Virus record (IMG/VR): IMGVR_UViG_3300020036_001014
Location: 2,266-66,265 of that record
Strand: one strand, 5' to 3'
DNA: 64,000 nt
Origin: a virus
Part shown: one piece after another, positions 44,831-58,433 of the stretch
Layout: each line of letters begins with the position of its first letter
Position numbering within the stretch: the first letter of the stretch is position 1
Program-made: the position numbers and the translations under genes
Notes under the pieces: model-generated
What the model was told of the DNA's origin: nothing
The model's database searches: none
The model's input: the letters and a program-made list of their open reading frames with translations, nothing else

Positions 44831-44849
44831 GTTAACTATTGATGGTTAG
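44831..44849 (-). promoter_or_regulatory. GTTAAC-type palindromic motif (GTTAACTATTGATGGTTAG)
   Basis: 14 nt upstream of the ATG of 44007..44816 in mRNA sense. Confidence 0.4.
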
Positions 44850-44855
44850 TGTTGA

Positions 44856-45380
44856 TCAGAAGGGAGGCATGGAATCGTCACTGTCATCAGGGAACGCACC
44901 CTGTCCCGCTGGTCCCTGTGGTGCAGCATACGCAGCTGCTGTCACCGTACGCTTGGCTACCGCCGAGTCATGTAGTGCAAGCGCAGCCAGAAGCTTAGGC
45001 TCCCACTCTGCTTGAGGTGTGTTGCTTTCGATGATGCTCTTGAGCAAGCCTTGGATCATGACGCTGTTCTCTTTCTCCGGGGTCCAGCCAGTGGACTTGC
45101 TTTGACCACCAGATGATGCAGCAGGGCGGCTGTAATCAGGCTTGGGCACGATCTTCTTAGCCGTGTGCCATGGACCATTGCGACCTTGATGTGTCTTGGT
45201 GATCTCATAGGTGGCCTGTTGTCCGATCTCCCACGGCGCCTTGTCGGGGGACTGGGTATTGACCGAAAGGTTATCGCCGTTCTCCATCGTACACCACCAC
45301 CCATACAGGGTACCGTGCTGCCCCTCGTAGGGGTTGCCCTGTTTCACTGACTTCAGTGCGCTTGTCTTTGCTTCTGCCAT
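44856..45380 (-). CDS. single-stranded DNA-binding protein (acidic C-terminal tail)
   Basis: C-terminus ...FPDDSDDSMPPF resembles the SSB partner-binding tip (D-D-D-I-P-F type). Start taken at internal ATG 45380 (MAEAKTS...); the track ORF extends to 45497. Confidence 0.5.
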   Translation of the reverse strand: MAEAKTSALKSVKQGNPYEGQHGTLYGWWCTMENGDNLSVNTQSPDKAPWEIGQQATYEITKTHQGRNGPWHTAKKIVPKPDYSRPAASSGGQSKSTGWTPEKENSVMIQGLLKSIIESNTPQAEWEPKLLAALALHDSAVAKRTVTAAAYAAPQGPAGQGAFPDDSDDSMPPF

Positions 45381-45384
45381 TGTC

Positions 45385-45549
45385 TTATTGGTTTTCTCGT
45401 TGAAAGTAATGCTCAAACTTTGGGTACAGCTGGTCGTGGATAGAGCAGATCCGATGGGCTGTGTCCTCCTTGCCAACGGGGTTGGCTTCTCCTGCATTGT
45501 CTGGGTTTCCCCGTTCTTTCCAGTACATTCTGTACACCTCTTTACTCAT
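45385..45549 (-). CDS. hypothetical small protein (~54 aa)
   Basis: Track ORF 45385..45624 starts with TTG; an internal ATG at 45549 has a degenerate GTTAAC-type motif just upstream. Confidence 0.25.
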   Translation of the reverse strand: MSKEVYRMYWKERGNPDNAGEANPVGKEDTAHRICSIHDQLYPKFEHYFQRENQ

Positions 45550-45712
45550 TTCTCTCTGTTGTCGTAGTTGAATTGTTCCCGACACTCCCTGTGTACCCTT
45601 CGGTACTCGATCGGATCCATGCAATAGGGGCAGAGATCCTCCTCCGGTGGCGACACCGGCTGTTCAGCGTTCATTTTAGTTGTTGGTGTTAGTTAACCGA
45701 ACTCTATGTCAC

Positions 45713-45931
45713 TCATGATCTAGCTTTTAGCAGTCGTTCTTTGGCGACTTCCATATCATAGATCAGAACAGCGTCTCCGGGATAGACCTTTCGCGTCAAA
45801 ATCCTGCGGCACCTGCTCGCCTTGAGCTTAAGCTCTGGAGCGATTGCCATCAATTTTGCCAAGACTTGTGGCTCAAGCCCTTCTCGGAGTTTCGTTACCC
45901 TTACCATCAGGGCTGGATCATACATCTTCAT
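45713..45931 (-). CDS. hypothetical protein (72 aa)
   Basis: ATG ORF. Confidence 0.3.
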   Translation of the reverse strand: MKMYDPALMVRVTKLREGLEPQVLAKLMAIAPELKLKASRCRRILTRKVYPGDAVLIYDMEVAKERLLKARS

Positions 45932-45970
45932 GACCCCAAAGGTAAGAACTTATTCTGACCCGTGCAAGTG

Positions 45971-46180
45971 TTAGCCTACCTTCTCTTGTTGCTTGAGGTA
46001 TGCACTGATCTTGTCTATCTCCATCCCGACCAACTCCTTGGCCTTCTTGATAGCGTATGGCTGGCACATCATTACCTGATGCCCGTTCTCTGCCATGGAC
46101 TCTTTCATGATGTCGCCGATCAGATCAAGGTCGTTCATGATCCTGTTCTTGGTGGCTTGGATCGCGTCTTGTTCGTTCAT
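45971..46180 (-). CDS. hypothetical protein (69 aa)
   Basis: ATG ORF. Confidence 0.3.
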   Translation of the reverse strand: MNEQDAIQATKNRIMNDLDLIGDIMKESMAENGHQVMMCQPYAIKKAKELVGMEIDKISAYLKQQEKVG

Positions 46181-47064
46181 CAGTTCATGATGTATGTACG
46201 TGTTCCGTGTTCGTTCATCCAGTCAACGATGATGTCGTAGCTGGCGTCATTGGCTTTAGCTCCAGCGCCTACCATTACGTACTCCTTGGCACGTCCGGCA
46301 CGAGGGGCCACATGATTAGTATAACGAGTGACCCCGTTGAACAGAGCCCACATCGTTGGTCCTTCGATCTCTGTCTCTACCAGCATGGAATTACCCAGCT
46401 TCTCAAGCTTGTTCTGCTTGGCTGTGCCGATGTCATCCAGTGGAGAGATCCCGAAGCATCGCTTGATGATGGTCTCGAACACACCCTGCGCCGTCTTTTC
46501 ATCCAGCTTGGTATCAGCCATGCGTTCGTAGTTCTTCACGAGCTGGTACTCCTGATCAATGGCGAGCTTCATATCGTCCACCATTGCCTGAAGTTTCTCG
46601 TGAGCAGTAGCAGTGTGTCGCACCTTGTTCATACTGGCTGCACGCAGTGCTCGGTAGTAGGTGTTGGCGCACTTGATCACCGTGGTAGTGGACCCGAATC
46701 CAACAGCAGAAGAGCCATCGTGTGAGTTCATCGCCGTCAGGTATCGTGTCACCCCGCCTACCCCTACGTTAACCTCTGGCAAAGCAACTTGAAGGTACAC
46801 CCGCTGGCCTCCGCTCAACAGCCCACCAGTGGCAGCGTCAAGGCCAATGGTATTGCTGGCCTCAACCACCAGTTCAGCAAGCTCACTGTTCTGTACGGGC
46901 AGGTAGTTCTTACCCACCACACCAAGGCACTTGTCGTTGTCGGACCGGATGACACCATAGCCCTCGGTCATGATGCCGGACTCAGTGACAAGGCGTTCTT
47001 TAACTACTCCCCAGTTAAGACCAGTCGCCTCAAGCAACTCGAATGTCTTCATGTATTTTTCCAT
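46180..47064 (-). CDS. DUF932-like phage protein (294 aa)
   Basis: GVVGKNYLPVQNSELAELVVEASNTIGLDAATGGLLSGGQRVYLQVALPE resembles the conserved DUF932 N-terminal block as recalled. Confidence 0.4.
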   Translation of the reverse strand: MEKYMKTFELLEATGLNWGVVKERLVTESGIMTEGYGVIRSDNDKCLGVVGKNYLPVQNSELAELVVEASNTIGLDAATGGLLSGGQRVYLQVALPEVNVGVGGVTRYLTAMNSHDGSSAVGFGSTTTVIKCANTYYRALRAASMNKVRHTATAHEKLQAMVDDMKLAIDQEYQLVKNYERMADTKLDEKTAQGVFETIIKRCFGISPLDDIGTAKQNKLEKLGNSMLVETEIEGPTMWALFNGVTRYTNHVAPRAGRAKEYVMVGAGAKANDASYDIIVDWMNEHGTRTYIMN

Positions 47065-47066
47065 GC

Positions 47067-47948
47067 TTATTTTGCTTTGAATGGATCAGATGGACCCCCC
47101 CAGAGACGAAGGCCGAACCCCTCGCCGTCTCTCTTTGTTACCGAGTCATCGCCTTCTGGGATCTTAAACCCGGTAACCTCCTCGATGCTGGTACCGTATA
47201 CCTCAACGTCGATAACTGCGTTCTTTACTTGGTCGATGACCATGCCCTGCTCGCTGCACATATAGGCCAGCTTTGACACCTTGTCTCCGCTCCAGTCCGG
47301 GACCTTGGCAGAGATGAACGACCTGTACATTTCCATCGGCATCTTGTCAACTGGCACCACGTACCGGATACGGGAGGGTCTGGCCTTGATCCTATCAGGG
47401 ATGCGGTCCAAGTGGTTGGTGCAGCCAATGAACACAGTCCCCTGAACGCTGTTGCACCCGTCGAGGTACGTCAGAAGATCGTGGTCCTCGGACACAGCAT
47501 CGAACTCATCGTAGAACATCACGATCAGGTTGTCCTGCGATCCACGGATATGCTTGGACATCTTAGCTATTGCCCCTGCACTGTATCCTGTTGCGTCGAT
47601 GCAAATAGCGCCGAACTCAGTTGATAGATCCTGCATCAGCAGTCGTGCAGCGGAGGTCTTGCCAGTACCAGCTGGCCCATGCCACAGCAACCCGAGCTTG
47701 TGACAAATGTCCATGGACTTGAACTTGTCCTTAGCCGCAACGAACTCCTTCACCCTGCCGATGGTGAAGTTGATGCCCTCGTGGTCGAATCGGACAAGCT
47801 GCTCGACTCCTGAGTACTTGGTTACCCCAAGTACCAGCCTGTCGTCAGGTGTCTTCATGCTGACCATCGTATAGATACCTTCTTCTAGTTTCTCGACACG
47901 CAGAAGGTCATCGTCCAGTATGGTGGTGTTACCCAGCTTCTTGTACAT
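47067..47948 (-). CDS. AAA-family ATPase (293 aa)
   Basis: Walker A GPAGTGKTS, Walker B VMFYDEFD, sensor-like TNH. Confidence 0.7.
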   Translation of the reverse strand: MYKKLGNTTILDDDLLRVEKLEEGIYTMVSMKTPDDRLVLGVTKYSGVEQLVRFDHEGINFTIGRVKEFVAAKDKFKSMDICHKLGLLWHGPAGTGKTSAARLLMQDLSTEFGAICIDATGYSAGAIAKMSKHIRGSQDNLIVMFYDEFDAVSEDHDLLTYLDGCNSVQGTVFIGCTNHLDRIPDRIKARPSRIRYVVPVDKMPMEMYRSFISAKVPDWSGDKVSKLAYMCSEQGMVIDQVKNAVIDVEVYGTSIEEVTGFKIPEGDDSVTKRDGEGFGLRLWGGPSDPFKAK

Positions 47949-47951
47949 GTG

Positions 47952-48311
47952 CTACTTGTTGAAGAGTTTCTTGTACACCTTCTCGACCACGTCCTTGGGT
48001 ACGAACGTGCATCCGAACTGGACACCATCGTTCTTGAACTCAGCCTTGTATTCACCAGCCATTATCAGTTCTTCAACAACGATTAGCTTGGCCAGCTCGG
48101 ACATGAACTCTGGCATGTCGATGGTTTTGAATCCTCCGGGTCCAGCAGTTCCTAGTTTATATTCATACAGGACGGCGTAGCCCCTGAATCCGGACGTCCT
48201 CGAATCGGGCCACAGCTTGACACCAACCCCATCTGCGTATGTCAGTAGCTTATTGTACCGGTCTTCACTCATTGGCGTAACGCACCCGCCTTGGTATTTC
48301 AACTTGCTCAT
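47952..48311 (-). CDS. hypothetical protein (119 aa)
   Basis: ATG ORF. Confidence 0.35.
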   Translation of the reverse strand: MSKLKYQGGCVTPMSEDRYNKLLTYADGVGVKLWPDSRTSGFRGYAVLYEYKLGTAGPGGFKTIDMPEFMSELAKLIVVEELIMAGEYKAEFKNDGVQFGCTFVPKDVVEKVYKKLFNK

Positions 48312-48312
48312 C

Positions 48313-48693
48313 TTAATTGTAGTGTTGTTCGTGAATGTCCTTGACCTTTTCCTTCAGTGTTGGTACCTTGAACTGGACGTAGATGTTATCCGGTGACGCA
48401 TCGAAGTAGTGTCGAAGCGCAGGACACAACCACAGATCCATTCCAAGTTGTGGGCAGTGGTAGTACGTGCCCGTGGTTACTTCGCCGCCAGTCCTGCTGA
48501 TGTGCAGGGTGTGCGACGGGAAATCAACAGCAGAGAACGTCAGGTACACCTCGTCGCTGCCTTCGGACAGCAGTTCGATAAGTGTATCCGCCCCTGCCAC
48601 AAAGGGTTCATCAACCAACCCCACGTTGGGATCGGTGAATACCCACATCGGACCCTTGCGTTCCGCCTTGATGGTGAAGATTGAATTGCTCAT
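48313..48693 (-). CDS. hypothetical protein (~126 aa)
   Basis: Track ORF extends to 48759, overlapping the upstream gene; internal ATG (MSNSIF...) gives an ATGA overlap at 48690-48693. Confidence 0.35.
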   Translation of the reverse strand: MSNSIFTIKAERKGPMWVFTDPNVGLVDEPFVAGADTLIELLSEGSDEVYLTFSAVDFPSHTLHISRTGGEVTTGTYYHCPQLGMDLWLCPALRHYFDASPDNIYVQFKVPTLKEKVKDIHEQHYN

Positions 48694-49052: not shown

Positions 49053-49054
49053 GG

Positions 49055-49073
49055 CTTAACTGTTTATGGTTAG
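49055..49073 (-). promoter_or_regulatory. GTTAAC-type motif (CTTAACTGTTTATGGTTAG)
   Basis: 2-3 nt upstream of the ATG of 48690..49052. Confidence 0.4.
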
Positions 49074-49978
49074 TCGATCAGCTTCTCGCCGATCTTCTTG
49101 ACCAGTTCATTTGGAAGTTCGTACTCACCGATGGTGATGCTGTCCTTGTTGAACTGGACGTTGCCTTGCTTGGTTGTGATAACCTCACCACTGCACCGCT
49201 CAAGCCACTGGTCAATGGTAAGTTCGTTGCGATCATTTGTATTGTCGTTACCAACGAACGCTGGGTGATGCTTCCTGTACACAAAGACAGGGAAGTTGAC
49301 AGTAGATGTGGGGTCATAAGGCTTCACTCCAGAGCGAGCAGTGGTTTCACACGCCACCCATTCACGAAGCGCCTTATCCTTGATGGCTACACAGTCGCCG
49401 TCTTGCAGGCTGTGCTTCTTTGTCCCACCCATGCCAGCAATGATCTTCTTGACCGTTGCGTTATCAACAGTAGTGCAACCAATGGTCACGGAACCGGGCT
49501 TGATCTCAACGGTCCAGTCCTTGTACTTCAGTGGTTCTTCTGTCTTGACCAACAGGCGTTCGATGAACTCACCCAGTGAGAGGTAGTTCAGCGGATCTCC
49601 TGAATTGTCGGCTAAGATCTGGGAACTCCATCCATTCAGACCAGACTTATCCATGAAGATCACCACCTCGCTACCAAGTGACCACACGGGCTTTTTCCCA
49701 ACAGCCACAGCTGCATCGTACACGATCTTACCCGTAATGGCATCGACCTTCACTGCGTCGTATGGCTGAAGTCCTGCTGTTGCTAGCTCCACATCTTCAA
49801 AGAGGAAGCTGTAATACCCAATGCAGACCCACATGTCGGTAACACGTCCTACCGTGTGGTCTTTCCCAACCATGAGCCCCATTGGACCGTCCCATCCGGG
49901 ATTGCCGCCCGAGTTGTATTTCTCCTTAGTAGCAGTGGCCTTGATGCGTACGCGGTCTCCCTTCTTGAACGTTGTCAT
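49070..49978 (-). CDS. hypothetical protein (302 aa), paralogous C-terminal motif with next gene
   Basis: Contains SVTIGCTTVDNATVKKIIAG and SITIGEYELPNELVKKIGEKL, related to HVSIGCFTLKNEEVLAIEAA in 49975..50700. Confidence 0.4.
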   Translation of the reverse strand: MTTFKKGDRVRIKATATKEKYNSGGNPGWDGPMGLMVGKDHTVGRVTDMWVCIGYYSFLFEDVELATAGLQPYDAVKVDAITGKIVYDAAVAVGKKPVWSLGSEVVIFMDKSGLNGWSSQILADNSGDPLNYLSLGEFIERLLVKTEEPLKYKDWTVEIKPGSVTIGCTTVDNATVKKIIAGMGGTKKHSLQDGDCVAIKDKALREWVACETTARSGVKPYDPTSTVNFPVFVYRKHHPAFVGNDNTNDRNELTIDQWLERCSGEVITTKQGNVQFNKDSITIGEYELPNELVKKIGEKLID

Positions 49979-50700
49979 TGTTGTTTGGTTTTGATGAGTT
50001 CAACTACCTTCTTAATGTCTTCGTACTTAACAGTGTGTCCTTCTGCGAACGTTGCTACACCAGTTGTATCGTTCCACTTAACAGGAACACCCTTCACCTT
50101 AAGGTTCATCGCAGCCTCAATGGCAAGAACCTCTTCGTTCTTCAGCGTGAAGCAGCCGATGCTTACATGTCCATCCTCCATCTTCACCTCGTAACTATTG
50201 ATAGTTAGTGGCTTAGTGATAACGGTGCGCTCCATCAGTTCCATGAACTGGTTGAATGGCATGAAGTTCTTAGACTCTTGACTCCACGCTGACCCCTTCA
50301 CGCCAGATGTTGTTACGCCATCACGGTATACGCTCGTGCCACCGAAGAACAGCCAACCGCCATCGTCATGCTTGTGCGGACTGTCAACACCCAGCTCCTT
50401 CGCCCGAGCCAGTGCATAATACCTCTGCGCAGGAGTGAAGTCCTTACACGCATCACCATGCTTCAAGCCAGCCTGCGGTGCTGGGGTGATGACGGTAGCC
50501 CACACATCGTTCAGGTACAGCCTTACTTGATCGCTGCCGTCACTAACATAAAGACCTTCTGCGCTATTTGTTGACCATCTTGCACCGTGCGGAATAGTAT
50601 ATTCCATGTCAGGCTTGCCGTCGTACTCAATGGACCGCACCGTAGCCCCGGCTACAATACCACGGGCAGTTGCTTCCTTGATCAGTTGTTCGAGTGTCAT
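49975..50700 (-). CDS. hypothetical protein (241 aa)
   Basis: ATG ORF; shares a (V/S)xIGCxT...N..V..I motif with 49070..49978. Confidence 0.4.
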   Translation of the reverse strand: MTLEQLIKEATARGIVAGATVRSIEYDGKPDMEYTIPHGARWSTNSAEGLYVSDGSDQVRLYLNDVWATVITPAPQAGLKHGDACKDFTPAQRYYALARAKELGVDSPHKHDDGGWLFFGGTSVYRDGVTTSGVKGSAWSQESKNFMPFNQFMELMERTVITKPLTINSYEVKMEDGHVSIGCFTLKNEEVLAIEAAMNLKVKGVPVKWNDTTGVATFAEGHTVKYEDIKKVVELIKTKQQ

Positions 50701-50957: not shown

Positions 50958-51956
50958 TTATTCTACCAGTTGTTTATGGTTCGTCCACTCAAACGTGTTG
51001 ATGTCAGAGGTGAAGTGTCCACACCCCTCGCAGTACAGGTATCCTTGGTCCGAAGCTACTTCATGTGACTCACACCTTGGGCATACCATGTCATCCATGT
51101 CCACTGGATCCTCACCCCAGCTCTCGCCGTAACAGTAGGAGTAGTTGCCGTGGTCCTTGTCTTCTCCTGCGAAGTAGATCCACGCAGTTACTTCTTCTCC
51201 ATCAGACAGTGTTACTTGCGTCTCACGGCGTTGGTACAAGGTCGGGTGTCCTTCCAGCTTATCCAGCTCCAGCAGGGTATCGGTTGACACACGATACACC
51301 TCTACCTCTACCTGTGAACCACCACCGCCTTCGATCAGGAACGGTAGACCATGTACGCACAGTCTGTGCTTCTCATTGGTCCACCCCCAGCCCATGAAGT
51401 CAGCCTTGTCGAGCATCCAGTTGTTACCGTGGCCTGTTTTCAGTGTACCATACACGGCCACCATCTTACCAGTTGGGATACAGTAAGCGTTGGAATACCA
51501 CGCTCCTTCATGCTCAACCCACCCCTCACCAGTACGGATGATGCTCTTGCGCTTGGCATTGACAAGAACATACCGCTGTGCGAACCGTGACAGAACCGCC
51601 TCACGAGATTCATGGTTGACGCTACGTAGCATATCAGCCAAGTGTTGGGTATCAGTACGGTCGTCGTCGATAAACCCCTCTACCGTACCGTTCTGGAACA
51701 AGTAGAACCCGTTGTCCACCGGGAATGGGTGGCAGTTCTGCAATGTCTTGCCACCTACCGTGGCCCACCTGAAGTGGTGTATCGCTGGACCGGGCTCAAG
51801 TGCTAGCTTGATAGCCTTCTCCATATCCAGTGTCTTCTCAACCTTGCCTGTTCGTAGGCAAAGTCTACCGTATCCGTCCGAGTTAATGAGCGCAGCTCGC
51901 TTAACTATGTCCGAGTTAAGCACGGACCCGCTGCTGTTGTCAATGAGTAGGCACAT
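50958..51956 (-). CDS. fused class-II glutamine amidotransferase (Ntn) + gamma-glutamyl cyclotransferase-like protein
   Basis: Start set at the internal Met (MCLLIDNSSG) so that Cys2 is N-terminal, since the track ORF overlaps the upstream gene. IHHFRWATVGGKTLQNCHPF matches the GATase-II signature (H.RWAT.G...N.HPF). C-terminal half MVAVYGTLKTGHGNN...VEVEVYRV...GHPTLYQR matches the AIG2/GGCT fold pattern. Terminal CPRC...CEGCGH zinc ribbon. Confidence 0.55.
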   Translation of the reverse strand: MCLLIDNSSGSVLNSDIVKRAALINSDGYGRLCLRTGKVEKTLDMEKAIKLALEPGPAIHHFRWATVGGKTLQNCHPFPVDNGFYLFQNGTVEGFIDDDRTDTQHLADMLRSVNHESREAVLSRFAQRYVLVNAKRKSIIRTGEGWVEHEGAWYSNAYCIPTGKMVAVYGTLKTGHGNNWMLDKADFMGWGWTNEKHRLCVHGLPFLIEGGGGSQVEVEVYRVSTDTLLELDKLEGHPTLYQRRETQVTLSDGEEVTAWIYFAGEDKDHGNYSYCYGESWGEDPVDMDDMVCPRCESHEVASDQGYLYCEGCGHFTSDINTFEWTNHKQLVE

Positions 51957-53931
51957 CTGTTGTTTGTTGTTGTTGTTGTTCGTAAGTACTGATCTCTTCT
52001 GGTGTGGCTGGTCGCAGGTCAATAATGTCCTCACCGGACATATCTGTTCCGTTGCCACGCAGCCACGTTACTCCAATGGCTCCAGTTCGTATCACACCCC
52101 TTGAATCTGCTCGGCACAGGTGTCCATGTGCAGGACCCCGGCCATTGTACATCAGAACCTGACCCACGGTGAATGGATTACCATCGTTACGTGTTGCTCG
52201 CTCGATCTCCTGCGGTGTTGCTCTGCGGGCAGACGACCGTTGGTATACACCGCCACACGGCGCTATGGATATCGTACCGTCACTGAACGTTCTCTCCACA
52301 AGCTGGGTTGTTCCGATAAACTGCGAGTCGCACCCTGTGTTATCGCCAGTGATCACGATCCAGTCACCCGTTCTGAGTATGTCTGCGGCAGCGATCTCTT
52401 CTGGAGTAGCACGGCGTGCTGATTCAGCTGGGTAGAACCAACCATGACCAATATGTGCCCAGTCCGTGCTATGACTTCCAGACCAGTCGATACCGAGCAA
52501 TTGATCTACCACGATGCAGCGACCCAGTTCACCTGTCCAACCCATTCTATCTGGTCCGGTTACTACAACCCAGTCTCCAATAGCCGGTAGATACCCGGTC
52601 TCTACTGGCTCTGGTTGTGCTGGAATAGCGGCCAGCTCTTCTTCCGTTGGAAGGCGTAGTCTGTTGGCATATACCCATGCGTCTGTCCTGTAATCCATCC
52701 GATGCACATTTATTTCCGCTCCGGTGCCATTTGCTGCGTTGACCGTAACCAATGATATGGGATCGTTCGCATACCCGTCAATCCACATCAGCACCTGTCC
52801 AGTGGTCCAGCTTGGGGGTGGCGGTGGAGGTGGGACGTAGTTCCGAATGAACTCACTGATCCCGTCGTGTTTGACACCACGGTAATACCACCCGGCGAAC
52901 GCACTGTACAGGCGGATGACCTCCTGGACTTTCTTGATCCCAGCCTTCGGATCTTCGGGGTTGGTGTAAACATCCAGCAGCATCTTCCGCACATCACCGT
53001 CACGACCCAGCTGCTTGCGCATCCATGTCCATGTCAAGGGCTTTTCTTTAGCCGCAAGCAGGAAGTGTGCTATCAGGTCGAACCTCCACATCAGGGACTT
53101 GGCCGTCTTGACCGCACTGGGAACTCGAAGCTCGATCCGGTGTGGCTCAAAGAAGAATGCTTGGTACTTCTCTTGTCTACCCTTCTCCTTGTCGGTCATG
53201 GCCTTGCAATACCCACCCGTCAAGCGTTTGGGATACAGAGCAAGCAGTAAGGGGAACAGCGGGCGGATCCGTTCGGATAGCTCGATAGGGGTAAACCGTC
53301 TGTCACTGATGGAGATATGGCCACCGCAACTGGTTGAGCAGTCGGCGTCGAGAACCTTGGTCAGCTTACGTACATGCTGAACCAGAAGCTCACGCTCGTT
53401 GATGTTGAAGGCTGGGGATACAAGCTCGAAACCCGTATCATCATCCAGCGAACCGTCACGTTCACATACCCATCCAGAGGGAAGTTCAAGCCCATCCTCG
53501 ATCAGATCACGGATACTGCGATCCTCTTTCTCCACCTCGAACCCGATGCGATACGGGTGTTCGTTGGTAACTGCATGAAGGTCACGCTCTTGGCTGTGGT
53601 AGTCGTTCAGGCCCCCTTCCTCTGGCTCGGAGTTGTACGTCTCGCTGCGTTCGTGGTAGTGGGCGTGGTCGTCACGGCACGACTCGCACCACCACTCATC
53701 AACATCTTCGATGTGGGTGAGGTTGAAGCCTGCGTTGTCATCGTGGCAAATGTCTTCGTTACAGCTACCGCACGAAGAGACTTCGTTCTGGTGGCAGATG
53801 CCGTCTATCATTGTACGGGTGGCCTCGTCTTCTGGTATCCAAGCCTCGCTTTGTTCCGAGTACAGATACCCATCAAGCTCTGGTGCAGATCGAGAACTGC
53901 ACCGTATTTCTATGGTGTGTGAATGCGGCAT
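51940..53931 (-). CDS. amidoligase-like (glutamine-synthetase-fold) protein with C-terminal repeat domain
   Basis: 663 aa; N-terminal Cys/His cluster; RIGFEVEKE...DGSLDDDTGFELVSPAF...GGHISIS resembles Amidoligase_2/GCS2-like ligases as recalled; C-terminal region has ~4 copies of an RRATP(E/Q)EI...TGDW(I/V)V(I/V)TG repeat and a PPPPPPP tract. Confidence 0.4.
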   Translation of the reverse strand: MPHSHTIEIRCSSRSAPELDGYLYSEQSEAWIPEDEATRTMIDGICHQNEVSSCGSCNEDICHDDNAGFNLTHIEDVDEWWCESCRDDHAHYHERSETYNSEPEEGGLNDYHSQERDLHAVTNEHPYRIGFEVEKEDRSIRDLIEDGLELPSGWVCERDGSLDDDTGFELVSPAFNINERELLVQHVRKLTKVLDADCSTSCGGHISISDRRFTPIELSERIRPLFPLLLALYPKRLTGGYCKAMTDKEKGRQEKYQAFFFEPHRIELRVPSAVKTAKSLMWRFDLIAHFLLAAKEKPLTWTWMRKQLGRDGDVRKMLLDVYTNPEDPKAGIKKVQEVIRLYSAFAGWYYRGVKHDGISEFIRNYVPPPPPPPSWTTGQVLMWIDGYANDPISLVTVNAANGTGAEINVHRMDYRTDAWVYANRLRLPTEEELAAIPAQPEPVETGYLPAIGDWVVVTGPDRMGWTGELGRCIVVDQLLGIDWSGSHSTDWAHIGHGWFYPAESARRATPEEIAAADILRTGDWIVITGDNTGCDSQFIGTTQLVERTFSDGTISIAPCGGVYQRSSARRATPQEIERATRNDGNPFTVGQVLMYNGRGPAHGHLCRADSRGVIRTGAIGVTWLRGNGTDMSGEDIIDLRPATPEEISTYEQQQQQTTDVPTH

Positions 53932-54202: not shown

Positions 54203-54212
54203 GTTGTTGGTT

Positions 54213-54231
54213 GTTAACTGTTCGTAGTTAC
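54213..54231 (-). promoter_or_regulatory. GTTAAC-type motif (GTTAACTGTTCGTAGTTAC)
   Basis: ~11 nt upstream of the ATG (MYKLKN) of 53966..54202. Confidence 0.4.
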
Positions 54232-54479
54232 TTCTGTTTGGCGAGGATGGCATTCCAGTTGTCGATCACATCGCTCAGGTCATATGCGTAGTCCTCATCG
54301 TCCATCACTTCAGATCGCACCTCCAATAGCATCTTGCGCATCGCGTTTCCAGCCTCCTCCAACTCTTCCACCCTGTCCTGTAGGGGCTGGGCTACTTCGG
54401 TGATCGCGGCGGCGTAACCTGACGCCATGACCGGATCATCAGTCCATTGATAGGACAACTCTTCAGCGTTCAGTTTCAT
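54228..54479 (-). CDS. hypothetical acidic protein (83 aa)
   Basis: ATG ORF; ATGA-coupled to the upstream micro-ORF. Confidence 0.35.
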   Translation of the reverse strand: MKLNAEELSYQWTDDPVMASGYAAAITEVAQPLQDRVEELEEAGNAMRKMLLEVRSEVMDDEDYAYDLSDVIDNWNAILAKQK

Positions 54480-54619
54480 TTCTTCCAGTGTCTGTTGGTT
54501 GTTGTTGCAGTTGCTTCGCGGATCACCGCAATGGCCCGAAGGCGTTCAATGGGTGTCGCGTTATTGACCGTCATTAGCAGCATGTGCGCCTGACGTACTT
54601 GTTCCTTGGTTGGTTTCAT
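54476..54619 (-). CDS. micro-ORF (47 aa), not in track
   Basis: ATG placed immediately after a GTTAAC-type motif (GTTAACTAACGAACAGTTAAG-ATG); stop overlaps the next ATG (ATGA). Confidence 0.35.
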   Translation of the reverse strand: MKPTKEQVRQAHMLLMTVNNATPIERLRAIAVIREATATTTNRHWKK

Positions 54620-54640
54620 CTTAACTGTTCGTTAGTTAAC
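54620..54640 (-). promoter_or_regulatory. GTTAAC-type motif (CTTAACTGTTCGTTAGTTAAC) + GC element at 54648..54660
   Basis: Abuts the ATG of micro-ORF 54476..54619; followed by GCGCCTTGCGGCTT. Confidence 0.45.
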
Positions 54641-54678
54641 TCACAGGCGCCTTGCGGCTTTCTGTTGTTGGTTAGTGT

Positions 54679-54999
54679 CTACTGCTTGCCTTGTGCAAGA
54701 TCTATCGACTTAGGGTTAAAGCGAACCATTGCATTGTACGCAGCTGTTTCGTCCGTAAACCCGTAATCTCCTTGATGCGCGTCTACATAGTTGTCTATCA
54801 GCTTCTTGGCTTCGATCAACTCTGCCAACAGGTCGTCCCGTTGTTGCTTGAGGTCGGGGGCTTGGGCGATCAGCTCATCATCACCAGATCGCAGTGATGT
54901 AACCTGAGCTATGTGTATTCCACGTCGATCAAATACGCCGACGCCAACAACGTGGGCCACAACCTTGCTGTGCCACGGTCCCGGTGTGTGCTTGCTCAT
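54679..54999 (-). CDS. hypothetical protein (~106 aa)
   Basis: Internal ATG (MSKHTPGPW) sits 3 nt after a GTTAAC-type motif; the track ORF extends to 55134. Confidence 0.4.
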   Translation of the reverse strand: MSKHTPGPWHSKVVAHVVGVGVFDRRGIHIAQVTSLRSGDDELIAQAPDLKQQRDDLLAELIEAKKLIDNYVDAHQGDYGFTDETAAYNAMVRFNPKSIDLAQGKQ

Positions 55000-55002
55000 G
55001 TC

Positions 55003-55022
55003 CTTAACTATTTGATGGTTAG
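55003..55022 (-). promoter_or_regulatory. GTTAAC-type motif (CTTAACTATTTGATGGTTAG)
   Basis: 3 nt upstream of the ATG of 54679..54999. Confidence 0.4.
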
Positions 55023-55341
55023 CGTCGCATCCAGTCACGACGGCGTTCTTTTCTTGACACCCTGCCGCAGTCCCGCTCAATGGCAGTACCGGACATTTGA
55101 TCCGTGACCCGTGTATCCCGATCACCCGGACCACTGGCCATGATACGGATAGGAGAGCTATCGGTCATTACTTCTGACCCACAGTTGACGCATGTCCCCA
55201 CCCATACTTGTCGGAAGGTTGACCCGAACGGTATACCAGCTATCTGCTGTTTCCATTCAAGGGAATGTCCACGCCAAGATGCAGAAGCATTGGCGTCATC
55301 GCGGAGCTTATTCAGCCCTACTTTGTATGTGATCACGTCGC

Positions 55342-55980
55342 TCATTTGATCGGATACTTGGAGTTCAGCGTATCTGCGATTCGCTTGCCGTATTTGCGGC
55401 TGATGTACTTGGCTTGGTAAGCCCACGCAGCAGCCCCCGCAGCATCCCCCGCAGCAGCCCGCGCAGCATCCCCCGCAGCAGCCCCCGCAGCATCCCACGC
55501 AGCAGCCCCCGCAGCAGCCCCCGCAGCATCCCCCGCAGCAGCCCCCGCAGCATACCCCGCAGCAGCCCCCGCAGCAGCCCACGCAGCAGCCCCCGCAGCA
55601 TCCCCCGCAGCATACCCCGCAGCATCCCCCGCAGCATACCCCGCAGCAGCCCACGCAGCAGCCCGCGCAGCAGCAAGCTCGCTGGCGCTCGCCCGGCCAT
55701 TTGCATAACGCTCTGCGACTCGAACAGCTTCTCTGCTCCGCTCATCGGTCAACAGGTCCCATACCCTACGACCATCAGCAAGCGGGGTCTTGCGAACGAA
55801 ACGACAGGCAAGAAGCCGAAGCTCCTTGTTATCCAGTAGCTTCAATTTCTCGATCAGCCACATAGACCACTCAGGATCCTTGTTCATGCTTATCACTTTC
55901 TCCCACGTTGGGGCTTCTTTCATGGCTTCGACGGCTGGTCCGCAGGCGCCAATGCGCCGGAGGTGTTGGTATGGTTTCAT
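55342..55980 (-). CDS. protein with ~19 tandem AAGx tetrapeptide repeats (212 aa)
   Basis: N-terminal ~110-aa globular-looking region, then AWAAAGYAAGDAAGYAAGDAAGAAAW... encoded by the 12-bp tandem array; all other frames are open only because of the repeat. Confidence 0.5.
   Translation of the reverse strand: MKPYQHLRRIGACGPAVEAMKEAPTWEKVISMNKDPEWSMWLIEKLKLLDNKELRLLACRFVRKTPLADGRRVWDLLTDERSREAVRVAERYANGRASASELAAARAAAWAAAGYAAGDAAGYAAGDAAGAAAWAAAGAAAGYAAGAAAGDAAGAAAGAAAWDAAGAAAGDAARAAAGDAAGAAAWAYQAKYISRKYGKRIADTLNSKYPIK
55423..55674. repeat. tandem array of ~21 x 12-bp units (CCCCCGCAGCAG / CCCCCGCAGCAT)
   Basis: Read directly: 252 bp of near-perfect 12-mers with occasional A/C substitutions. 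Confidence 0.9.
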
Positions 55981-56015
55981 ATTAGCTCGTTGTTACTTCG
56001 TTAAACTCGCTCAAA

Positions 56016-56030
56016 GACGCCTTGCGGCTT
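56016..56030 (-). promoter_or_regulatory. GC element GACGCCTTGCGGCTT with degenerate GTTAAC-type region (55985..56009)
   Basis: ~35 nt upstream of the ATG of 55342..55980; same GC element recurs at 54648, 57476 and, inverted, 57091. Confidence 0.35.
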
Positions 56031-56049
56031 ACTGGCTGTGTGTTGTTCG

Positions 56050-56223
56050 TTAAAAGAGTGATTTGATCACGTCATCAACTGGTACTTCGTTGTCCACGAA
56101 CACCTTCAGCGTCCGATCGTCGTCCTGAAAGGACAGCTGAATGCCCCCTTTCTTCGTGTAAACAACATAGGCTCGGCCCTTGCTGTCGATCACTTCAAGT
56201 CGTGTGAGTTTGTGGGTGTCCAT
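56050..56223 (-). CDS. micro-ORF (57 aa), not in track
   Basis: ATG ORF (MDTHKLTRLEVIDSKGRAYVVYTKKG...) between the repeat gene and the tRNA. Confidence 0.3.
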   Translation of the reverse strand: MDTHKLTRLEVIDSKGRAYVVYTKKGGIQLSFQDDDRTLKVFVDNEVPVDDVIKSLF

Positions 56224-56323
56224 GGTCGTTCAGTGTTTATGCCCACATTGGCAGTTATCGTCCTTGTCGTTGACACATGCTGCAACGATCATCAGCAGTA
56301 GTATGATGGCTAGGCTGGTCATT

Positions 56324-56343
56324 GTTAACTCGTTGTTGGTTAG
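56324..56343 (-). promoter_or_regulatory. GTTAAC-type motif (GTTAACTCGTTGTTGGTTAG)
   Basis: Between the 3' end of tRNA-Arg and a 30-aa hydrophobic micro-ORF (56230..56322). Confidence 0.4.
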
Positions 56344-56346
56344 TTG

Positions 56347-56420
56347 TCACCCCGCCACGACTCGAACGTGGACTTTACCGGGTAGAGGCCGGTCGTGTTA
56401 TCCAATTACACTACGGGGCG
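56347..56420 (-). tRNA. tRNA-Arg(UCU)-like
   Basis: Minus-strand cloverleaf: acceptor CGCCCCG/CGGGGTG (one G-U), D arm GTGT-AATTGGATA-ACAC, anticodon arm ACCGG-CCUCUAC-CCGGT (anticodon UCU; C at position 33 is atypical), T arm CCACG-TTCGAGT-CGTGG. GTTAAC-type motifs on both flanks. Confidence 0.6.
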
Positions 56421-56432
56421 CATAGCACTGTA

Positions 56433-56452
56433 TTAGTAACTATTGATAGTTA
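56433..56452 (-). promoter_or_regulatory. degenerate GTTAAC-type motif (AGTAACTATTGATAGTTAAT)
   Basis: Immediately 5' of tRNA-Arg on the minus strand. Confidence 0.3.
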
Positions 56453-56457
56453 ATGGT

Positions 56458-56631
56458 CTAGCTCGTTGGGGGCTCGTCGCCCTCATGAACAGGAAGCCAT
56501 CTTCCGTCCTTCAGTTGATCCCAATCTGCATCGGGATCCACTTCAGACAATAGCATCCACGTTCCTTCACCCCGGAACTGTCCCGGACCGGGCATCTTGA
56601 TCCATCGGATCGGTTCGCATTCTTTGCACAT
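56458..56631 (-). CDS. micro-ORF (57 aa), not in track
   Basis: ATG 3 nt downstream of motif GTTAACTGTTATTGGTTAAG. Confidence 0.3.
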   Translation of the reverse strand: MCKECEPIRWIKMPGPGQFRGEGTWMLLSEVDPDADWDQLKDGRWLPVHEGDEPPTS

Positions 56632-56634
56632 GTT

Positions 56635-56654
56635 GTTAACTGTTATTGGTTAAG
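56635..56654 (-). promoter_or_regulatory. GTTAAC-type motif (GTTAACTGTTATTGGTTAAG)
   Basis: 3 nt upstream of the ATG of micro-ORF 56458..56631. Confidence 0.4.
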
Positions 56655-56910
56655 CGTATTCTGGTTCTTCCACTGGTTCGCTTTCAATGCGCTCCAGTTG
56701 TTGCTCAAGTTCGTCCAGTGGGCGGAAGCGGCCAACGAAAAACCCGTTCGGGTTCCGATGCGGCTCTTCTTTCACATGCAGCCCGGTCATGGATACTACC
56801 CTGCTCACGGTGTATGTGTCACCAGCCACGAGCTTGTGCGGCACGCCACTGGTCAGCCTTCCGTCGGATGCGTCCACACACACCACCTTCTGGCCTACGT
56901 AGAAGCTCAT
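56650..56910 (-). CDS. hypothetical protein (86 aa)
   Basis: ATG ORF; ATGA-coupled to the upstream micro-ORF. Confidence 0.4.
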   Translation of the reverse strand: MSFYVGQKVVCVDASDGRLTSGVPHKLVAGDTYTVSRVVSMTGLHVKEEPHRNPNGFFVGRFRPLDELEQQLERIESEPVEEPEYA

Positions 56911-57056
56911 TTCTCGTCCTTGTTATGCCCCTTCAGATCCCTTTTCAGCCCCTCCCATAGATGGGAAAAGTTGTGGTCTTGATAAGGAGCGGGTGAAACG
57001 TCCGGTTGCTCTTCGGCCAGCTGCCGTTCAACTTGTAGGTGTCCTTTGTTTGCCAT
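56907..57056 (-). CDS. micro-ORF (49 aa), not in track
   Basis: ATG ORF whose TGA overlaps the ATG of 56650..56910. Confidence 0.3.
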   Translation of the reverse strand: MANKGHLQVERQLAEEQPDVSPAPYQDHNFSHLWEGLKRDLKGHNKDEK

Positions 57057-57090
57057 GCTTTCTCGCTTTACGTTGTTACGCTCGTTCGCA

Positions 57091-57128
57091 GCCGCCTTCG
57101 GCTTGCTCGTTAACTACTCGTTAGTTAG
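57091..57128. promoter_or_regulatory. GC element (GCCGCCTTCGGCTT) followed by GTTAAC-type motif (GTTAACTACTCGTTAGTTAG), plus-strand orientation
   Basis: Element order is reversed relative to other sites, so it may serve the opposite strand or form a small hairpin (AGCCG-CCTT-CGGCT). Confidence 0.3.
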
Positions 57129-57293
57129 TGGTCGTTGTTCGTACTTCGCACGTACTACGGGATCTTTCACGGCTAACCTCCGCTCGTTCATGGGCAACGA
57201 AAGCAGGTATTCCCGGAACGCTATCCCGTGGCTATGCTTCGACGTTATTCGCCTGCGGCCAAACAGGCCACGAACCGTTAAGGCTTTCATTTC

Positions 57294-57314
57294 GTTAACT
57301 ACTTTTGGTTAAGG
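57294..57314 (-). promoter_or_regulatory. GTTAAC-type motif (GTTAACTACTTTTGGTTAAGG)
   Basis: 3 nt upstream of the ATG at 57290 of a possible 58-aa micro-ORF (57114..57290). Confidence 0.35.
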
Positions 57315-57394
57315 TGGTGTGCAGCCGGACGTACGAGTAAGGTTGTCGGGTTAGTCCCCGGACCTTCGCAGTATCCTTTCACCGCACACCTTGA

Positions 57395-57447
57395 CATTGC
57401 AGCCGGGATCGAACCGGCAGGGCATAGCCCTTCCATCTTTTGCAATG
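57395..57447 (-). ncRNA. mini tRNA-like element (acceptor stem + T-arm + one hairpin, no D-arm)
   Basis: Minus strand: CATTGCA-AAAGATGGA-AGGGC-TAT-GCCCT-GCCGG-TTCGATC-CCGGC-TGCAATG. Perfect 7-bp acceptor-like stem and canonical T-arm with TTCGATC loop. Directly downstream of motif 57451..57471. Confidence 0.35.
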
Positions 57448-57450
57448 TTC

Positions 57451-57490
57451 GTTAACTGTTCGTTAGTTAACTCTCAGACGCCTGCGGCTT
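57451..57490 (-). promoter_or_regulatory. GTTAAC-type motif (GTTAACTGTTCGTTAGTTAAC) + GC element (AGACGCCTGCGGCTT)
   Basis: Lies between the stop of 57489..57764 and the mini tRNA-like element. Confidence 0.4.
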
Positions 57491-57764
57491 ACTGTTCTTG
57501 GCCAGTGCTCGCGCTTTCGTAGTCACGCAAGAACCTAAGCAGGAACACGTCAATGTCCTGACCCACCACCGACGTTAGTCCTTCACGCAAAAGGATCGCA
57601 TGGGCTAGGTCCAGCACGTACTTTTTCGTCACTACGTTCTTGTGCCCGTGGCCCCAATAGGCCCTTGACACCTTGTCCGCATGGTCGGCCTGTTCCACGG
57701 CCTTCCTTTGGTCGTCCGTAGTGGCGCGATCCATTGCGGCCTTGATCTTTGGGTGCGTTCTCAT
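57489..57764 (-). CDS. hypothetical protein (91 aa)
   Basis: ATG 4 nt after motif CTTAACTATTTGGTAGTTAAC. Confidence 0.4.
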   Translation of the reverse strand: MRTHPKIKAAMDRATTDDQRKAVEQADHADKVSRAYWGHGHKNVVTKKYVLDLAHAILLREGLTSVVGQDIDVFLLRFLRDYESASTGQEQ

Positions 57765-57768
57765 TTGC

Positions 57769-57789
57769 TTAACTATTTGGTAGTTAACG
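57769..57789 (-). promoter_or_regulatory. GTTAAC-type motif (CTTAACTATTTGGTAGTTAAC)
   Basis: 4 nt upstream of the ATG of 57489..57764; identical 21-mer at 58413. Confidence 0.45.
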
Positions 57790-57843
57790 GAACGAAAGAA
57801 AGGGAAGGGGCGTTTCCGCCCCCTCCCGATCTTCCTTTGGCCC

Positions 57844-58407
57844 TTAGGCCGCTTCCTTCGCTTCCAATTCCCTCAGATGCGCCTGCACCGCTTCCAGCAA
57901 CCCTTCACAAGCCTTGCGGTCCATGGATGCCACAAGGGCACCCCAGTTCTTAGCGAACTGCCGGGCGATCACTTCGCCGGTCACGGTCGGACTATCATCC
58001 ACCGTGGAAGCATGTTTATTGCCTTCAACTTTCAGCGCGGCACCCTTGTCGGAACGTTCGGCCCGCATACGGATACCGCAGCGTTCACGCATGACCACGC
58101 TGAAGGTTTGTTGGGCCATGCCGCAGCGCCAATTTCGCACCGTCACCGTCTTGCCCGCTTTTATCTCTTTAGATGCCGGGCAAAGTACCTCTTTCAAGGT
58201 ATTGAATATCGCCCGATCTTCCATGCCGGATGCGCGGAGATCTTCGCAGGCCTTCACCAGCCGATCAGATACCCGACCCACAATAGGGGCCAGACCTTCA
58301 CGGAAGGGTTCCGCGTTCGCATCTTCTTTGCCAACGAAGGCCGTGAAGCGCTCCACGATACCCTTGGCCTGTTCAATGTTCAGGCCGTCGTTCACTTGCT
58401 TTTCCAT
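57844..58407 (-). CDS. hypothetical early protein (187 aa), first gene of minus-strand operon
   Basis: ATG 5 nt after an identical CTTAACTATTTGGTAGTTAAC motif; faces the control region. Confidence 0.45.
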   Translation of the reverse strand: MEKQVNDGLNIEQAKGIVERFTAFVGKEDANAEPFREGLAPIVGRVSDRLVKACEDLRASGMEDRAIFNTLKEVLCPASKEIKAGKTVTVRNWRCGMAQQTFSVVMRERCGIRMRAERSDKGAALKVEGNKHASTVDDSPTVTGEVIARQFAKNWGALVASMDRKACEGLLEAVQAHLRELEAKEAA

Positions 58408-58412
58408 CTTGC

Positions 58413-58433
58413 TTAACTATTTGGTAGTTAACT
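58413..58433 (-). promoter_or_regulatory. GTTAAC-type motif (CTTAACTATTTGGTAGTTAAC)
   Basis: 5 nt upstream of the ATG of 57844..58407; followed by the hairpin TAAGGG...CCCTTA. Confidence 0.45.

Follow-up and report, generated by a model that had tools for sequence, protein, structure and literature searches.

A repeated near-palindrome as a candidate lineage-specific transcription-start signal in the leftward gene cluster of a crAss-related podovirus

What is the role of a short, near-palindromic sequence that recurs just ahead of the leftward genes of a phage? We have asked this for a window of 64,000 nucleotides (positions 2,266 to 66,265 of IMG/VR record IMGVR_UViG_3300020036_001014; all coordinates below are those of the window), which is most of a podovirus-like phage genome of ~70 kb. 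Its plus strand carries a block of structural genes (window 1-32 kb), among them those for a P22-like portal, a crAss-like muzzle protein and a 2501-aa virion protein, and its minus strand a leftward cluster from 58.4 to 32.2 kb (~26 kb, with an intergenic share of ~1.25 kb or ~5%). A preliminary description, made from the letters of this DNA, had placed a GTTAAC-type motif at 13 positions in the leftward cluster and had offered three roles for it, namely promoter, operator, or hairpin for RNA processing or translation initiation. The motif is indeed present at every one of the 13 positions and, among the three options, promoter is the best. More precisely, we give about an even chance to the reading that it is a promoter or promoter-operator specific to this phage lineage, i.e. 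a self-contained transcription-start signal within a crAss-related podovirus that is otherwise served by host sigma-A boxes.

The motif occurs non-randomly and with a strong bias in strand and position. Its gene-sense consensus is TAAC, 7 or 8 bases and AGTTAA (~19 bases), and exact matches to TAAC-N7/8-AGTTAA number 15 in the minus (gene) sense and eight in the plus sense, all eight at palindromic family sites, against a chance level of 0.15 for both strands (100 block-wise base-composition shuffles of the window). The pattern TTAACT-N7-AGTTAA with up to two mismatches is found 11 times where 0.88 matches are expected, and none of 100 shuffles reaches 11. We list 17 copies with coordinates plus degenerate variants ahead of the starts at 55980, 53931 and 45674; absent from the preliminary description were the copy at 50191-50208, three intragenic copies with G-rich centres and these variants. 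The description had itself asked whether the motif also occurs inside open reading frames (ORFs) or at late genes: 13 of the 17 copies are intergenic, in ~5% of the leftward cluster, the other four are intragenic, and window 1-33,000 holds zero matches to the two-box motif, thus none across the 32 kb plus-strand structural block. Four of the 13 intergenic copies supply the stop codon of the upstream gene. Eleven copies crowd into 4.2 kb at the head of the leftward cluster (~1 per 350 bases), another four are spread over 44.8-52 kb, a single one is found at 33.7 kb, most of the distal half is empty, and there are zero exact two-box matches rightward of 58,433. Such a gradient in density, from 11 copies in 4.2 kb to none distally, fits small, separately expressed early genes.

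Is the motif a palindrome? The inverted-repeat core seen in the preliminary description stands as a near-palindrome but not as a true one, for only TAAC and AGTTAA are invariant parts. In the left arm invariance is confined to TAAC, and AGTTAA is kept in 15 of the 17 copies, the other two ending AGTTAC. In gene sense either T or C is found at arm positions 1 and 6; the base innermost in the right arm can be T, C or G, and the spacer measures 7 bases in eight copies and 8 in nine. Eight copies fit the pattern in gene sense only and one (56436-56453) is exact in antisense only, which implies that the element has direction. Invariant boxes around a spacer that varies by one base moreover point to a contact with two boxes rather than to a rigid dimer site. 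No conserved sequence was found upstream of the motif copies.

The distance to what follows is short as a rule. From the end of AGTTAA to the next ATG there are, in site order, 5, 4, 4, 53, 4, 2, 4, 1, 11, 3 and 15 nt, so that eight units have 1-5 nt (mode 4) and the other three 11, 15 and 53 nt, in agreement with the description, which had the motif end just before minus-strand start codons. All copies that follow are given in minus-strand sense. Copy 1 (TTAACTAccaaaTAGTTAA, 58413..58431) lies 5 nt before ATG 58407, the start of the first leftward gene (187 aa), and adjoins a ~1 kb non-coding, origin-like region. Copy 2 (57769..57787) ends 4 nt before ATG 57764 (91 aa) and begins 14 nt past a terminator stem; the two are identical over 24 nt (57765-57788 = 58409-58432), so that the 21/21 identity previously claimed for them was right to within one base of its coordinates. 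Copy 3 (TTAACTAacgaaCAGTTAA, 57452..57470) leaves 3-4 nt to the first stem of a structured non-coding RNA (ncRNA), copy 4 (TTAACCAaaagTAGTTAA, 57295..57312) 4 nt to ATG 57290 of a 58-aa gene, and copy 5 (CTAACTAacgagTAGTTAA, 57110..57128), which overlaps the stop of that 58-aa gene, a 53-nt leader to ATG 57056. In copy 6 (TTAACCAataaCAGTTAA, 56636..56653) the TAA is the upstream stop and the distance to ATG 56631 is 4 nt. Copy 7 (TTAACTAtcaaTAGTTAC, 56436..56453) is separated by 15 nt from the 5' end of tRNA-Arg(TCT), which it precedes, and copy 8 (CTAACCAacaacGAGTTAA, 56325..56343) stands 2 nt after this tRNA (ARAGORN end 56346) and 2 nt before ATG 56322, which opens a 30-aa hydrophobic peptide. 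Copy 9 (CTAACCAtcaaaTAGTTAA, 55004..55022), again with TAA as upstream stop, ends 4 nt before ATG 54999; copy 10, with the same sequence as copy 3 (TTAACTAacgaaCAGTTAA, 54621..54639), has a hairpin box upstream and ends 1 nt before ATG 54619; and copy 11 (GTAACTAcgaaCAGTTAA, 54214..54231) ends 11 nt before ATG 54202. Farther along the cluster, the copy at 49056..49073 (CTAACCAtaaaCAGTTAA) contributes its TAA as upstream stop and ends 3 nt before ATG 49052, and that at 44832..44849 (CTAACCAtcaaTAGTTAA) ends 15 nt before ATG 44816 of a ParB/KorB-like gene. The intragenic copy at 50191..50208 ends AGTTAC, lies inside a 241-aa gene, 212 nt upstream of a start at 49978, and may be an internal start signal. 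The three G-rich-centre copies (33688-33706, with TTAACTCgggagTAGTTAA, 47000-47018 and 51901-51919) each sit 35-73 nt inside a gene, have perfect arms around the centres gggag, gggag and ggaca (gene sense) and are far above chance. As for the degenerate variants, TTTAACGAAGTAACAACGAGCTAAT (55981..56008) stands directly before ATG 55980 and resembles GTAACACGAGGCTAAAAT before ATG 53931.

The motif thus brackets the tRNA-Arg gene (56346-56420, minus strand) and precedes the tRNA-like element, just as the preliminary description had it, AGTTAA ending 15 nt 5' of the tRNA and 3-4 nt 5' of the first ncRNA stem. Because protein genes, tRNA and ncRNA alike are opened by it, the tight spacing is not about translation, and a role in translation only, one of the earlier suggestions, is not compatible with the copies ahead of the two RNAs. 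The short spacing to ATG or RNA does lend support to another, that the predicted transcripts are leaderless or nearly so.

How, then, are the other genes of this phage served? According to the preliminary description, late plus-strand genes carry TATCTTTG in place of the motif, and indeed all nine copies of TATCTTTG in the window (eight plus, one minus) are intergenic, with plus-strand starts at 1357, 6714, 9267, 11377, 18238, 28318, 59760 and 63165 and the minus-strand copy at 698-705. Two signals for two gene sets are therefore real, but 'early' and 'late' are assumed labels: users of TATCTTTG are the structural operons, two rightward tRNAs, 30 nt ahead of which it is found at 59760..59767 (+), and small genes at both ends, so it also serves tRNAs and other non-structural genes beyond the structural set. 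At 59798-59873 (plus strand) ARAGORN calls a tRNA with a four-base anticodon (gcgc; Rfam score 44 bits), which could be unusual, for instance of the frameshift-suppressor kind, or an artefact of calling. The distance from TATCTTTG to ATG is 4-6 nt in four units, a gap that implies leaderless mRNAs, and by this sequence argument the boxes predict such mRNAs for structural genes. The TATCTTTG sites match the Bacteroidota sigma-A -7 box consensus TAHHTTTG. In Flavobacterium johnsoniae, sigma-A promoters combine -33 TTTG with -7 TAnnTTTG (TAHHTTTG), 4-5 nt from the start site; T-12, A-11, T-8, T-7, T-6 and G-5 of the -7 box are near-invariant and G at -10 is 'virtually zero' (PMC6847099).

The motif is distinct from this host-type box. 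No TAnnTTTG lies near the motif copies and minus strand 34,405-59,031 holds just one, at 45944; within the non-coding region at 59 kb, minus-strand position 59032 has a weak host-type box. With no TAnnTTTG box beside the copies, there would be nothing close by for a pure operator to act on, and the motif fills the very position that is held elsewhere in the genome by TATCTTTG, which fits a transcription-start signal. Shine-Dalgarno-like 4-mers precede 7 of 72 starts, below the 20% seen in random coding sequence, and the host apparently lacks Shine-Dalgarno-led translation and has promoters of the Bacteroidota type. In a relative whose portal is 63% identical (L148), TATCTTTG, TATATTTG and TAACTTTG occupy equivalent places (middle TC, AT or AC), and its contig is binned in a metagenome-assembled genome labelled Planctomycetia, which is why we judge from these sequences that the host is probably, not certainly, a member of Bacteroidota. 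Other known signals were tried for the motif itself and rejected. Sigma-70 promoters show no enrichment (18 sites versus 13.4 expected), a sigma-54 -24/-12 promoter has similar spacing but its GG/GC is absent, extracytoplasmic function (ECF) sigma promoters would need a longer spacing, and an IHF site is at odds with the consensus; for a homing-endonuclease target the copy number is too high, and a methyltransferase or GTTAAC restriction site does not fit as GTTAAC is also present 13 times outside the motif family. Pairing with the 3' end of 16S rRNA was dropped as well, the motif having no known complementarity to it.

Evidence of a different kind comes from relatives. Close relatives (75-98% identity) were collected from Logan and JGI assemblies (L052, L053-55, L059, L149, L152/153 and L166) and none was found in INPHARED or IMG/VR; likewise, 15 kb of the window gave zero megablast matches against the INPHARED phage collection. 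At orthologous sites in the close relatives (75-90% identity) both boxes are unchanged, and the spacer shows 1-4 changes in 5 bases or a one-base difference in length. Before the ParB-like gene, for instance, it reads TCAAT, TCAGT or AGAAC, with four of five spacer bases different at 75% protein identity; at 55004 it is TCAAAT or ACAAAT, and in copy 1 CCAAAT or CCAAT, the L059 version being 1 nt shorter. Copy 6 is the same in L059, and for the copy at 50191-50208 the left box differs by T/C between the window and L052. The boxes are hence conserved where the spacer is free.

What changes is the gene behind the motif. L059 is without three whole units (91-aa gene, ncRNA and 58-aa gene), L053 and L166 have a different gene right behind AGTTAAggacATG (copy 9 site, motif+ggacATG), and L052 and L053 have a different gene behind copy 49056. 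L166 carries a membrane-protein gene behind copy 54214, and L149 has that gene behind a degenerate copy. Hairpin boxes move as well: L149 has lost the one near copy 10 by deletion between two TAAC repeats, and in L166 versions of the box are exchanged between sites. In all, junctions of gene insertion, loss or replacement are at the motif in five relatives, the indel pattern known from the promoter-early stem-loops (PeSLs) of T4-type phages, and cassettes are shuffled at these junctions. Assemblies of relatives also break at a 12-base tandem unit (21 copies, 88% match; 55420-55674) inside the gene for a 212-aa early protein (55342-55980, minus strand), within which L052 and L059 end.

Beyond the close relatives the motif fades rapidly. 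A scan of IMG/VR with TTAACTANCNAANAGTTAA returned 88 loci with one match each, in unrelated and mostly A+T-rich contigs, and such single scattered matches are background; an 18-mer scan of JGI metagenomes gave 18 loci with L166 as the only true relative. Distant relatives (50% or less identity), found via a 663-aa protein (30-47% identity; L001-L051, L056, L057) or via the ParB-like protein (45-50%; L154, L155), are without the motif. They have gene-junction elements of their own: L042 (6949-12400) six copies of GAGTACGGTCAACCGTACTC, L057 (6500-14500) poly-C, as AACACCCCCCCC, 2-6 nt before ATG, and L155 (4900-8200) CCAACACyTTAACAC 8-9 nt before ATG and behind G+C hairpins. Comparison of these sequences suggests that fast-evolving, lineage-specific expression signals are found group-wide. 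That the signal is lineage-specific and fast-evolving suggests a phage-specific reader; a poorly sampled host group may be an alternative source of the lineage specificity. At 50958-53931 (minus strand) the gene for the 663-aa protein used for this search (weak amidoligase match) is followed by one for a 332-aa protein, which begins MC... (glutamine amidotransferase of Ntn type) and bears a GGACT/AIG2 domain. This gene pair is kept in many phage contigs (L001-L058) and may be involved in DNA base hypermodification or peptide-ligation chemistry.

Several RNA elements accompany the copies. After gene 1 there is a strong intrinsic terminator (57802..57827, minus strand) with an 11-bp stem, nine G-C pairs and then a T-run, and the 81-nt stretch 57760-57840 folds at -36.3 kcal/mol (z-score -5.35). 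It is the sole strong intrinsic terminator of the leftward cluster and its stem ends 14 nt before copy 2, which implies that the next unit needs a fresh start. A G+C hairpin box (AAGCCGCAGGCG, 57479..57490, minus strand) lies 8 nt upstream of copy 3 and others are at 54648-54660, 56018-56030 and 57093-57104; the small conserved G+C box AAGCCGCAAGGCG is beside four copies and seven copies are without a hairpin. As the folding of these hairpins is not significant we do not call the boxes terminators. The ncRNA candidate (57312..57449, 138 nt, minus strand) consists of a tRNA-like minihelix and then a long stem-loop, the minihelix combining an 8-bp acceptor-like stem, a small hairpin and a canonical T-arm (GCCGG/TTCGATC/CCGGC). 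Its folding energy is -60.4 kcal/mol (z-score -4.57), it is not called by ARAGORN and has no Rfam match; a scan of 42-64 kb at E<=1 found no Rfam family beyond three tRNAs, and so none for the motif. Next to copy 1, the gene-free ~1 kb at 58440-59400 is probably a replication origin. It contains clustered ATGACA repeats (58950-59030), the DnaA-box-like TGTTCATAA (the relative L057 shows TGTTGATAA/TGTTCATAA) and, at 59031-59045, the tight palindrome CTTAACACTGTTAAG, which has the same half-site as the motif. A DnaA_C-domain protein is encoded at 41089-41829 (minus strand).

From these findings we propose that each copy would act as a self-contained DNA signal of ~19-21 bp that opens one transcription unit. 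Its reader would contact the two boxes, TAAC and AGTTAA, 7 or 8 bp apart, transcription would begin a few bases past AGTTAA, and the products would be mRNAs with little or no leader, the precursor of a tRNA and a small structured RNA. An upstream terminator or small G+C hairpin would complete the motif to a portable terminator/promoter cassette, and recombination between copies would insert, delete or swap small genes. We infer initiation at the motif, the position of the start site and the kind of reader from sequence features. Because no phage polymerase or sigma factor was found, the likeliest reader would be the host RNA polymerase with a specificity factor, the alternative being something new.

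The search for a reader covered the window and ~3.6 kb beyond its right end, the short gap before the window start being left out. Among ~90 ORFs compared with Pfam, PHROGs or both, and nine of them with NCBIfam, we detected no RNA polymerase, sigma factor or clear regulator, and no repressor, integrase or partition cassette was recognised either; the ~3.6 kb past the right end hold tail fibres and lysis genes and no polymerase or sigma factor. The promoter proposal of the preliminary description hence survives without the phage or virion polymerase or sigma factor to which it was tied. No match of PF00940 type (single-subunit polymerase) was found among all ORFs scanned, and a scan for DxDxD in all frames (ORFs of at least 150 aa) gave four matches, none polymerase-sized or polymerase-like and none in the 2501-aa virion protein (20788-28293, plus strand). 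The gene for the latter is downstream of the crAss-like muzzle gene and has a 2217-aa counterpart in L057. A virion polymerase of the crAss type was considered here and rejected, there being no DxDxD and no similarity to solved structures; neither this nor the other large proteins had a Pfam, PHROG or PDB-sequence match. With its HEIGH zinc-peptidase-like motif, hydrophobic C-terminal segments and no DxDxD, the 2501-aa protein is, by its sequence, a likelier candidate for an ejection or cargo protein than for a polymerase, though it may hold a polymerase of novel fold. The leftward cluster encodes a DnaB-type helicase, a primase-like protein, the DnaA_C-domain protein, YopX, DUF932, an AAA ATPase, RusA, the amidoligase/GATase/GGACT pair and numerous small orphans (gene calls being our own simple ORF choices). 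In addition, one of 62 ORFs in an alignment strongly matched PHROG 757 (DNA methyltransferase, E 8e-64).

One protein does merit attention as a possible binder of the motif. The 269-aa product of 44007..44816 (minus strand) belongs to PHROG 5931, a large phage family with an invariant DGQHRL, and has no match in Pfam and NCBIfam. Its AlphaFold2 model has a mean predicted local distance difference test (pLDDT) score of 95.2, and the top Foldseek matches are ParB (6sdk_B, 7bnr_A) and KorB (8qa8_C) with probabilities of 0.96-0.99 and E-values of 5e-3 to 4e-2; ParB-CTP clamps are among the structural matches. Judging from this model, the ParB/KorB-like protein is a candidate binder of a palindromic site.

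Several points weigh against our reading of the sequence as a putative promoter. The search above brought up no polymerase, sigma factor or clear regulator as its reader, and near-palindromes are typically found at dimer binding sites and seldom in promoters. If a start site 4-5 nt downstream is required, the 1-3 nt between AGTTAA and ATG in three units leave little room; the GTG start codon found 1 nt past the motif in L053 and L166 is poor for a leaderless mRNA; in L059 a 49-aa gene follows the terminator without any motif; and four copies are intragenic. Moreover, if the first gene is itself motif-dependent, the reader must pre-exist in the cell or arrive with the virion.

Near-palindromy brings up the possibility, on the whole unlikely to our minds though a serious one, that the copies are not promoters but operator or roadblock sites for a phage DNA-binding dimeric regulator which blocks initiation or elongation across the early cluster, the ParB/KorB-like protein being one candidate. 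Quasi-palindromic arms would suit it, as would many copies confined to one co-directional cluster with a stoperator-like orientation bias (orientation and placement are indeed of stoperator type, with 15 sense versus 8 antisense matches and 13 of 17 copies intergenic), the occurrence of the same half-site in the palindrome of the origin-like region, the motif copy that precedes the gene for the modelled ParB/KorB fold, and precedents such as KorB (PMC11790492) and stoperators (PMC9283540). Yet the spacer is 7 or 8 bp about equally often and differs by 1 bp between orthologues, the invariant part is TAAC on the left but AGTTAA on the right, and at eight sites a match exists in just one orientation. 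Besides, there is no host-type promoter nearby, the strong terminator after gene 1 speaks against a single long roadblocked transcript, in relatives whose ParB-like protein is 45-50% identical the punctuation motifs are not palindromic, and the ~90 ORFs contain no detectable repressor or integrase. Signals at the RNA level, as the preliminary description had also suggested, we regard as quite unlikely. Here, a sequence-specific endoribonuclease of host or phage would cut one or a few long primary transcripts at the motif or beside it to release leaderless mRNAs, tRNA and small RNA, or else the motif would be the site of a translational regulator. This could explain why it stands at cistron boundaries, often with the upstream stop inside it and a few bases before AUG; the tRNA and the tRNA-like minihelix could act as processing punctuation, the weak host-type box at 59032 could supply the upstream promoter, and the motif-less gene behind the terminator in L059 implies some read-through. 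However, no stable hairpin forms in the mRNA. Over the 13 intergenic copies the mRNA-sense hairpin has a mean of -1.8 kcal/mol, six being at or weaker than -1.0 and one unfolded, and of the 23 arm positions without a Watson-Crick pair, 22 turn out as true mismatches on the mRNA strand, with C.A mismatches at half of the sites. Marginal folding and C.A mismatches make a role for an mRNA hairpin unlikely, so that we do not uphold this part of the description. Stems of at most 7 bp are also far below the ~20 bp needed by RNase III (the T7 early region is an example), the strong terminator cuts gene 1 off from a putative precursor, a translational role leaves the copies at tRNA and ncRNA unexplained, and no Rfam family matched.

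A third possibility is that the hairpin matters on the DNA, as in promoters of the N4 type read on the template strand by an RNA polymerase activity that sequence methods do not recognise; candidate readers would then be the 2501-aa virion protein or a small early protein that reprograms the host polymerase. On the plus (template) strand 16 of the 23 non-Watson-Crick positions become G.T, and only one on the other strand; with arms of 7 bp, loops of 4-5 nt and G.T allowed, 112 of 119 arm positions pair on the template as against 97 of 119 in the mRNA. This asymmetry stems from three alignment columns only, at sites that are not statistically independent, and could reflect no more than the A+C-rich, G-poor composition ahead of starts (A 40%, C 26%, G 15%). 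We consider a hairpin promoter of this kind very unlikely, but if true it would provide an early-promoter consensus for this phage group. Scarcely probable at all is that the copies serve mobile gene cassettes chiefly as recombination joints, retained for the shuffling they bring about, and have no part in expression. Junctions of cassette gain, loss and replacement do lie at the motif in five relatives; the fixed orientation of the copies, the narrow and short distance to starts and RNA 5' ends, and boxes that are invariant while the spacer is free are not what mere joints would need, and the PeSL repeats of T4 recombine yet are regulatory signals themselves (PMC4122927). A small chance is left for combinations of these readings or for others we have not considered.

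Compared with known systems, the putative promoter shares features with several. T4-type PeSLs are terminator/promoter cassettes of hyperplastic regions (PMC2839356, PMC4122927). Like them, the units studied here are repeated, putatively regulatory elements that flank small, mostly orphan early genes, and relatives differ by gene insertion, loss or replacement with junctions in the repeats. Unlike PeSLs, which use a host sigma-70 early promoter, the motif does not match the host-type box of its genome; a strong terminator is present in a single unit, weak G+C hairpins in four, and the predicted RNAs are leaderless. Promoters of the T7 class, which belong to single-subunit phage RNA polymerases, are asymmetric and followed by leaders with ribosome binding sites. 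They resemble the motif as autonomous, conserved elements of ~20 bp that abut the start of many genes of one class and have no upstream partner, and differ from the near-palindromic motif in the two points just named; a cognate polymerase for the motif was not found in the DNA searched. Early promoters of N4 have an inverted repeat of 5-7 bp with a 3-nt loop and number three copies. In this coliphage they are template-strand DNA hairpins read by a virion RNA polymerase (PMC4496689). Similar to N4, a short-loop inverted repeat is found just upstream of early-gene starts at one genome end, and the template (plus) strand may preserve the hairpin better, with G.T at 16 of 23 positions, a bias from three columns only; in contrast to N4, no N4-like or other polymerase was detected, loops have 4-5 nt instead of 3, and there are at least 13 copies rather than three. 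For the early transcripts of the virion polymerase in crAss-like phage phi14:2, a shared upstream motif was not found and, as a result, there is no published consensus for comparison.

With the Bacteroidota sigma-A box the motif shares its placement relative to start codons and RNA genes and, in the right arm TAGTTAAG, T-12, A-11, T-8 and G-5 are common to some copies; unlike that box, the right arm reads (T/C/G)AGTTAA(G/C), with A-7 and A-6 in place of T and G at -10. KorB, a member of the ParB family, controls plasmid RK2 via multiple palindromic operators (PMC11790492), and L5-type stoperators of Cluster A mycobacteriophages are oriented repressor sites (PMC9283540). As in both of these, one short sequence is repeated at promoters and intergenic gaps of a mobile genome; its orientation is tied to transcription as in stoperators, and a protein with a predicted ParB/KorB fold (structure-based, with modest E-values) is encoded as in the KorB network. 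KorB operators, however, are contiguous perfect palindromes of fixed geometry, unlike the motif with its spacer of 7 or 8 bp and degenerate left box, and stoperators are asymmetric 13-mers of temperate phages with a known repressor, whereas no repressor or integrase was found here. As it departs from the host-sigma consensus, has no cognate polymerase in the DNA searched and differs in geometry from an operator, the motif belongs to none of the PeSL, phage-polymerase promoter, N4 or operator families. In its predicted function it comes closest to T4 PeSLs (cassette, shuffling) and phage-polymerase promoters (size, autonomy, position), and its shape recalls N4.

What may be learned from this element? 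As a motif family it is solid and its evolutionary behaviour well documented, and conserved intergenic start signals are as such common in phages. The motif opens gene control to experiment in an uncultured phage lineage whose genome appears to be written in two codes, the host -7 box and a 19-bp near-palindrome without a known reader. The identity of this reader would expose either a new way of redirecting the host polymerase or a new family of regulators. As both signals can lie at 4-6 nt from starts they predict widespread leaderless transcripts in the phage, and the unit of 20-25 bp might be put to use as a portable expression signal in the host group. Finally, the promoter-mediated shuffling of gene cassettes, known from T4-type phages, would extend to a quite different phage group.

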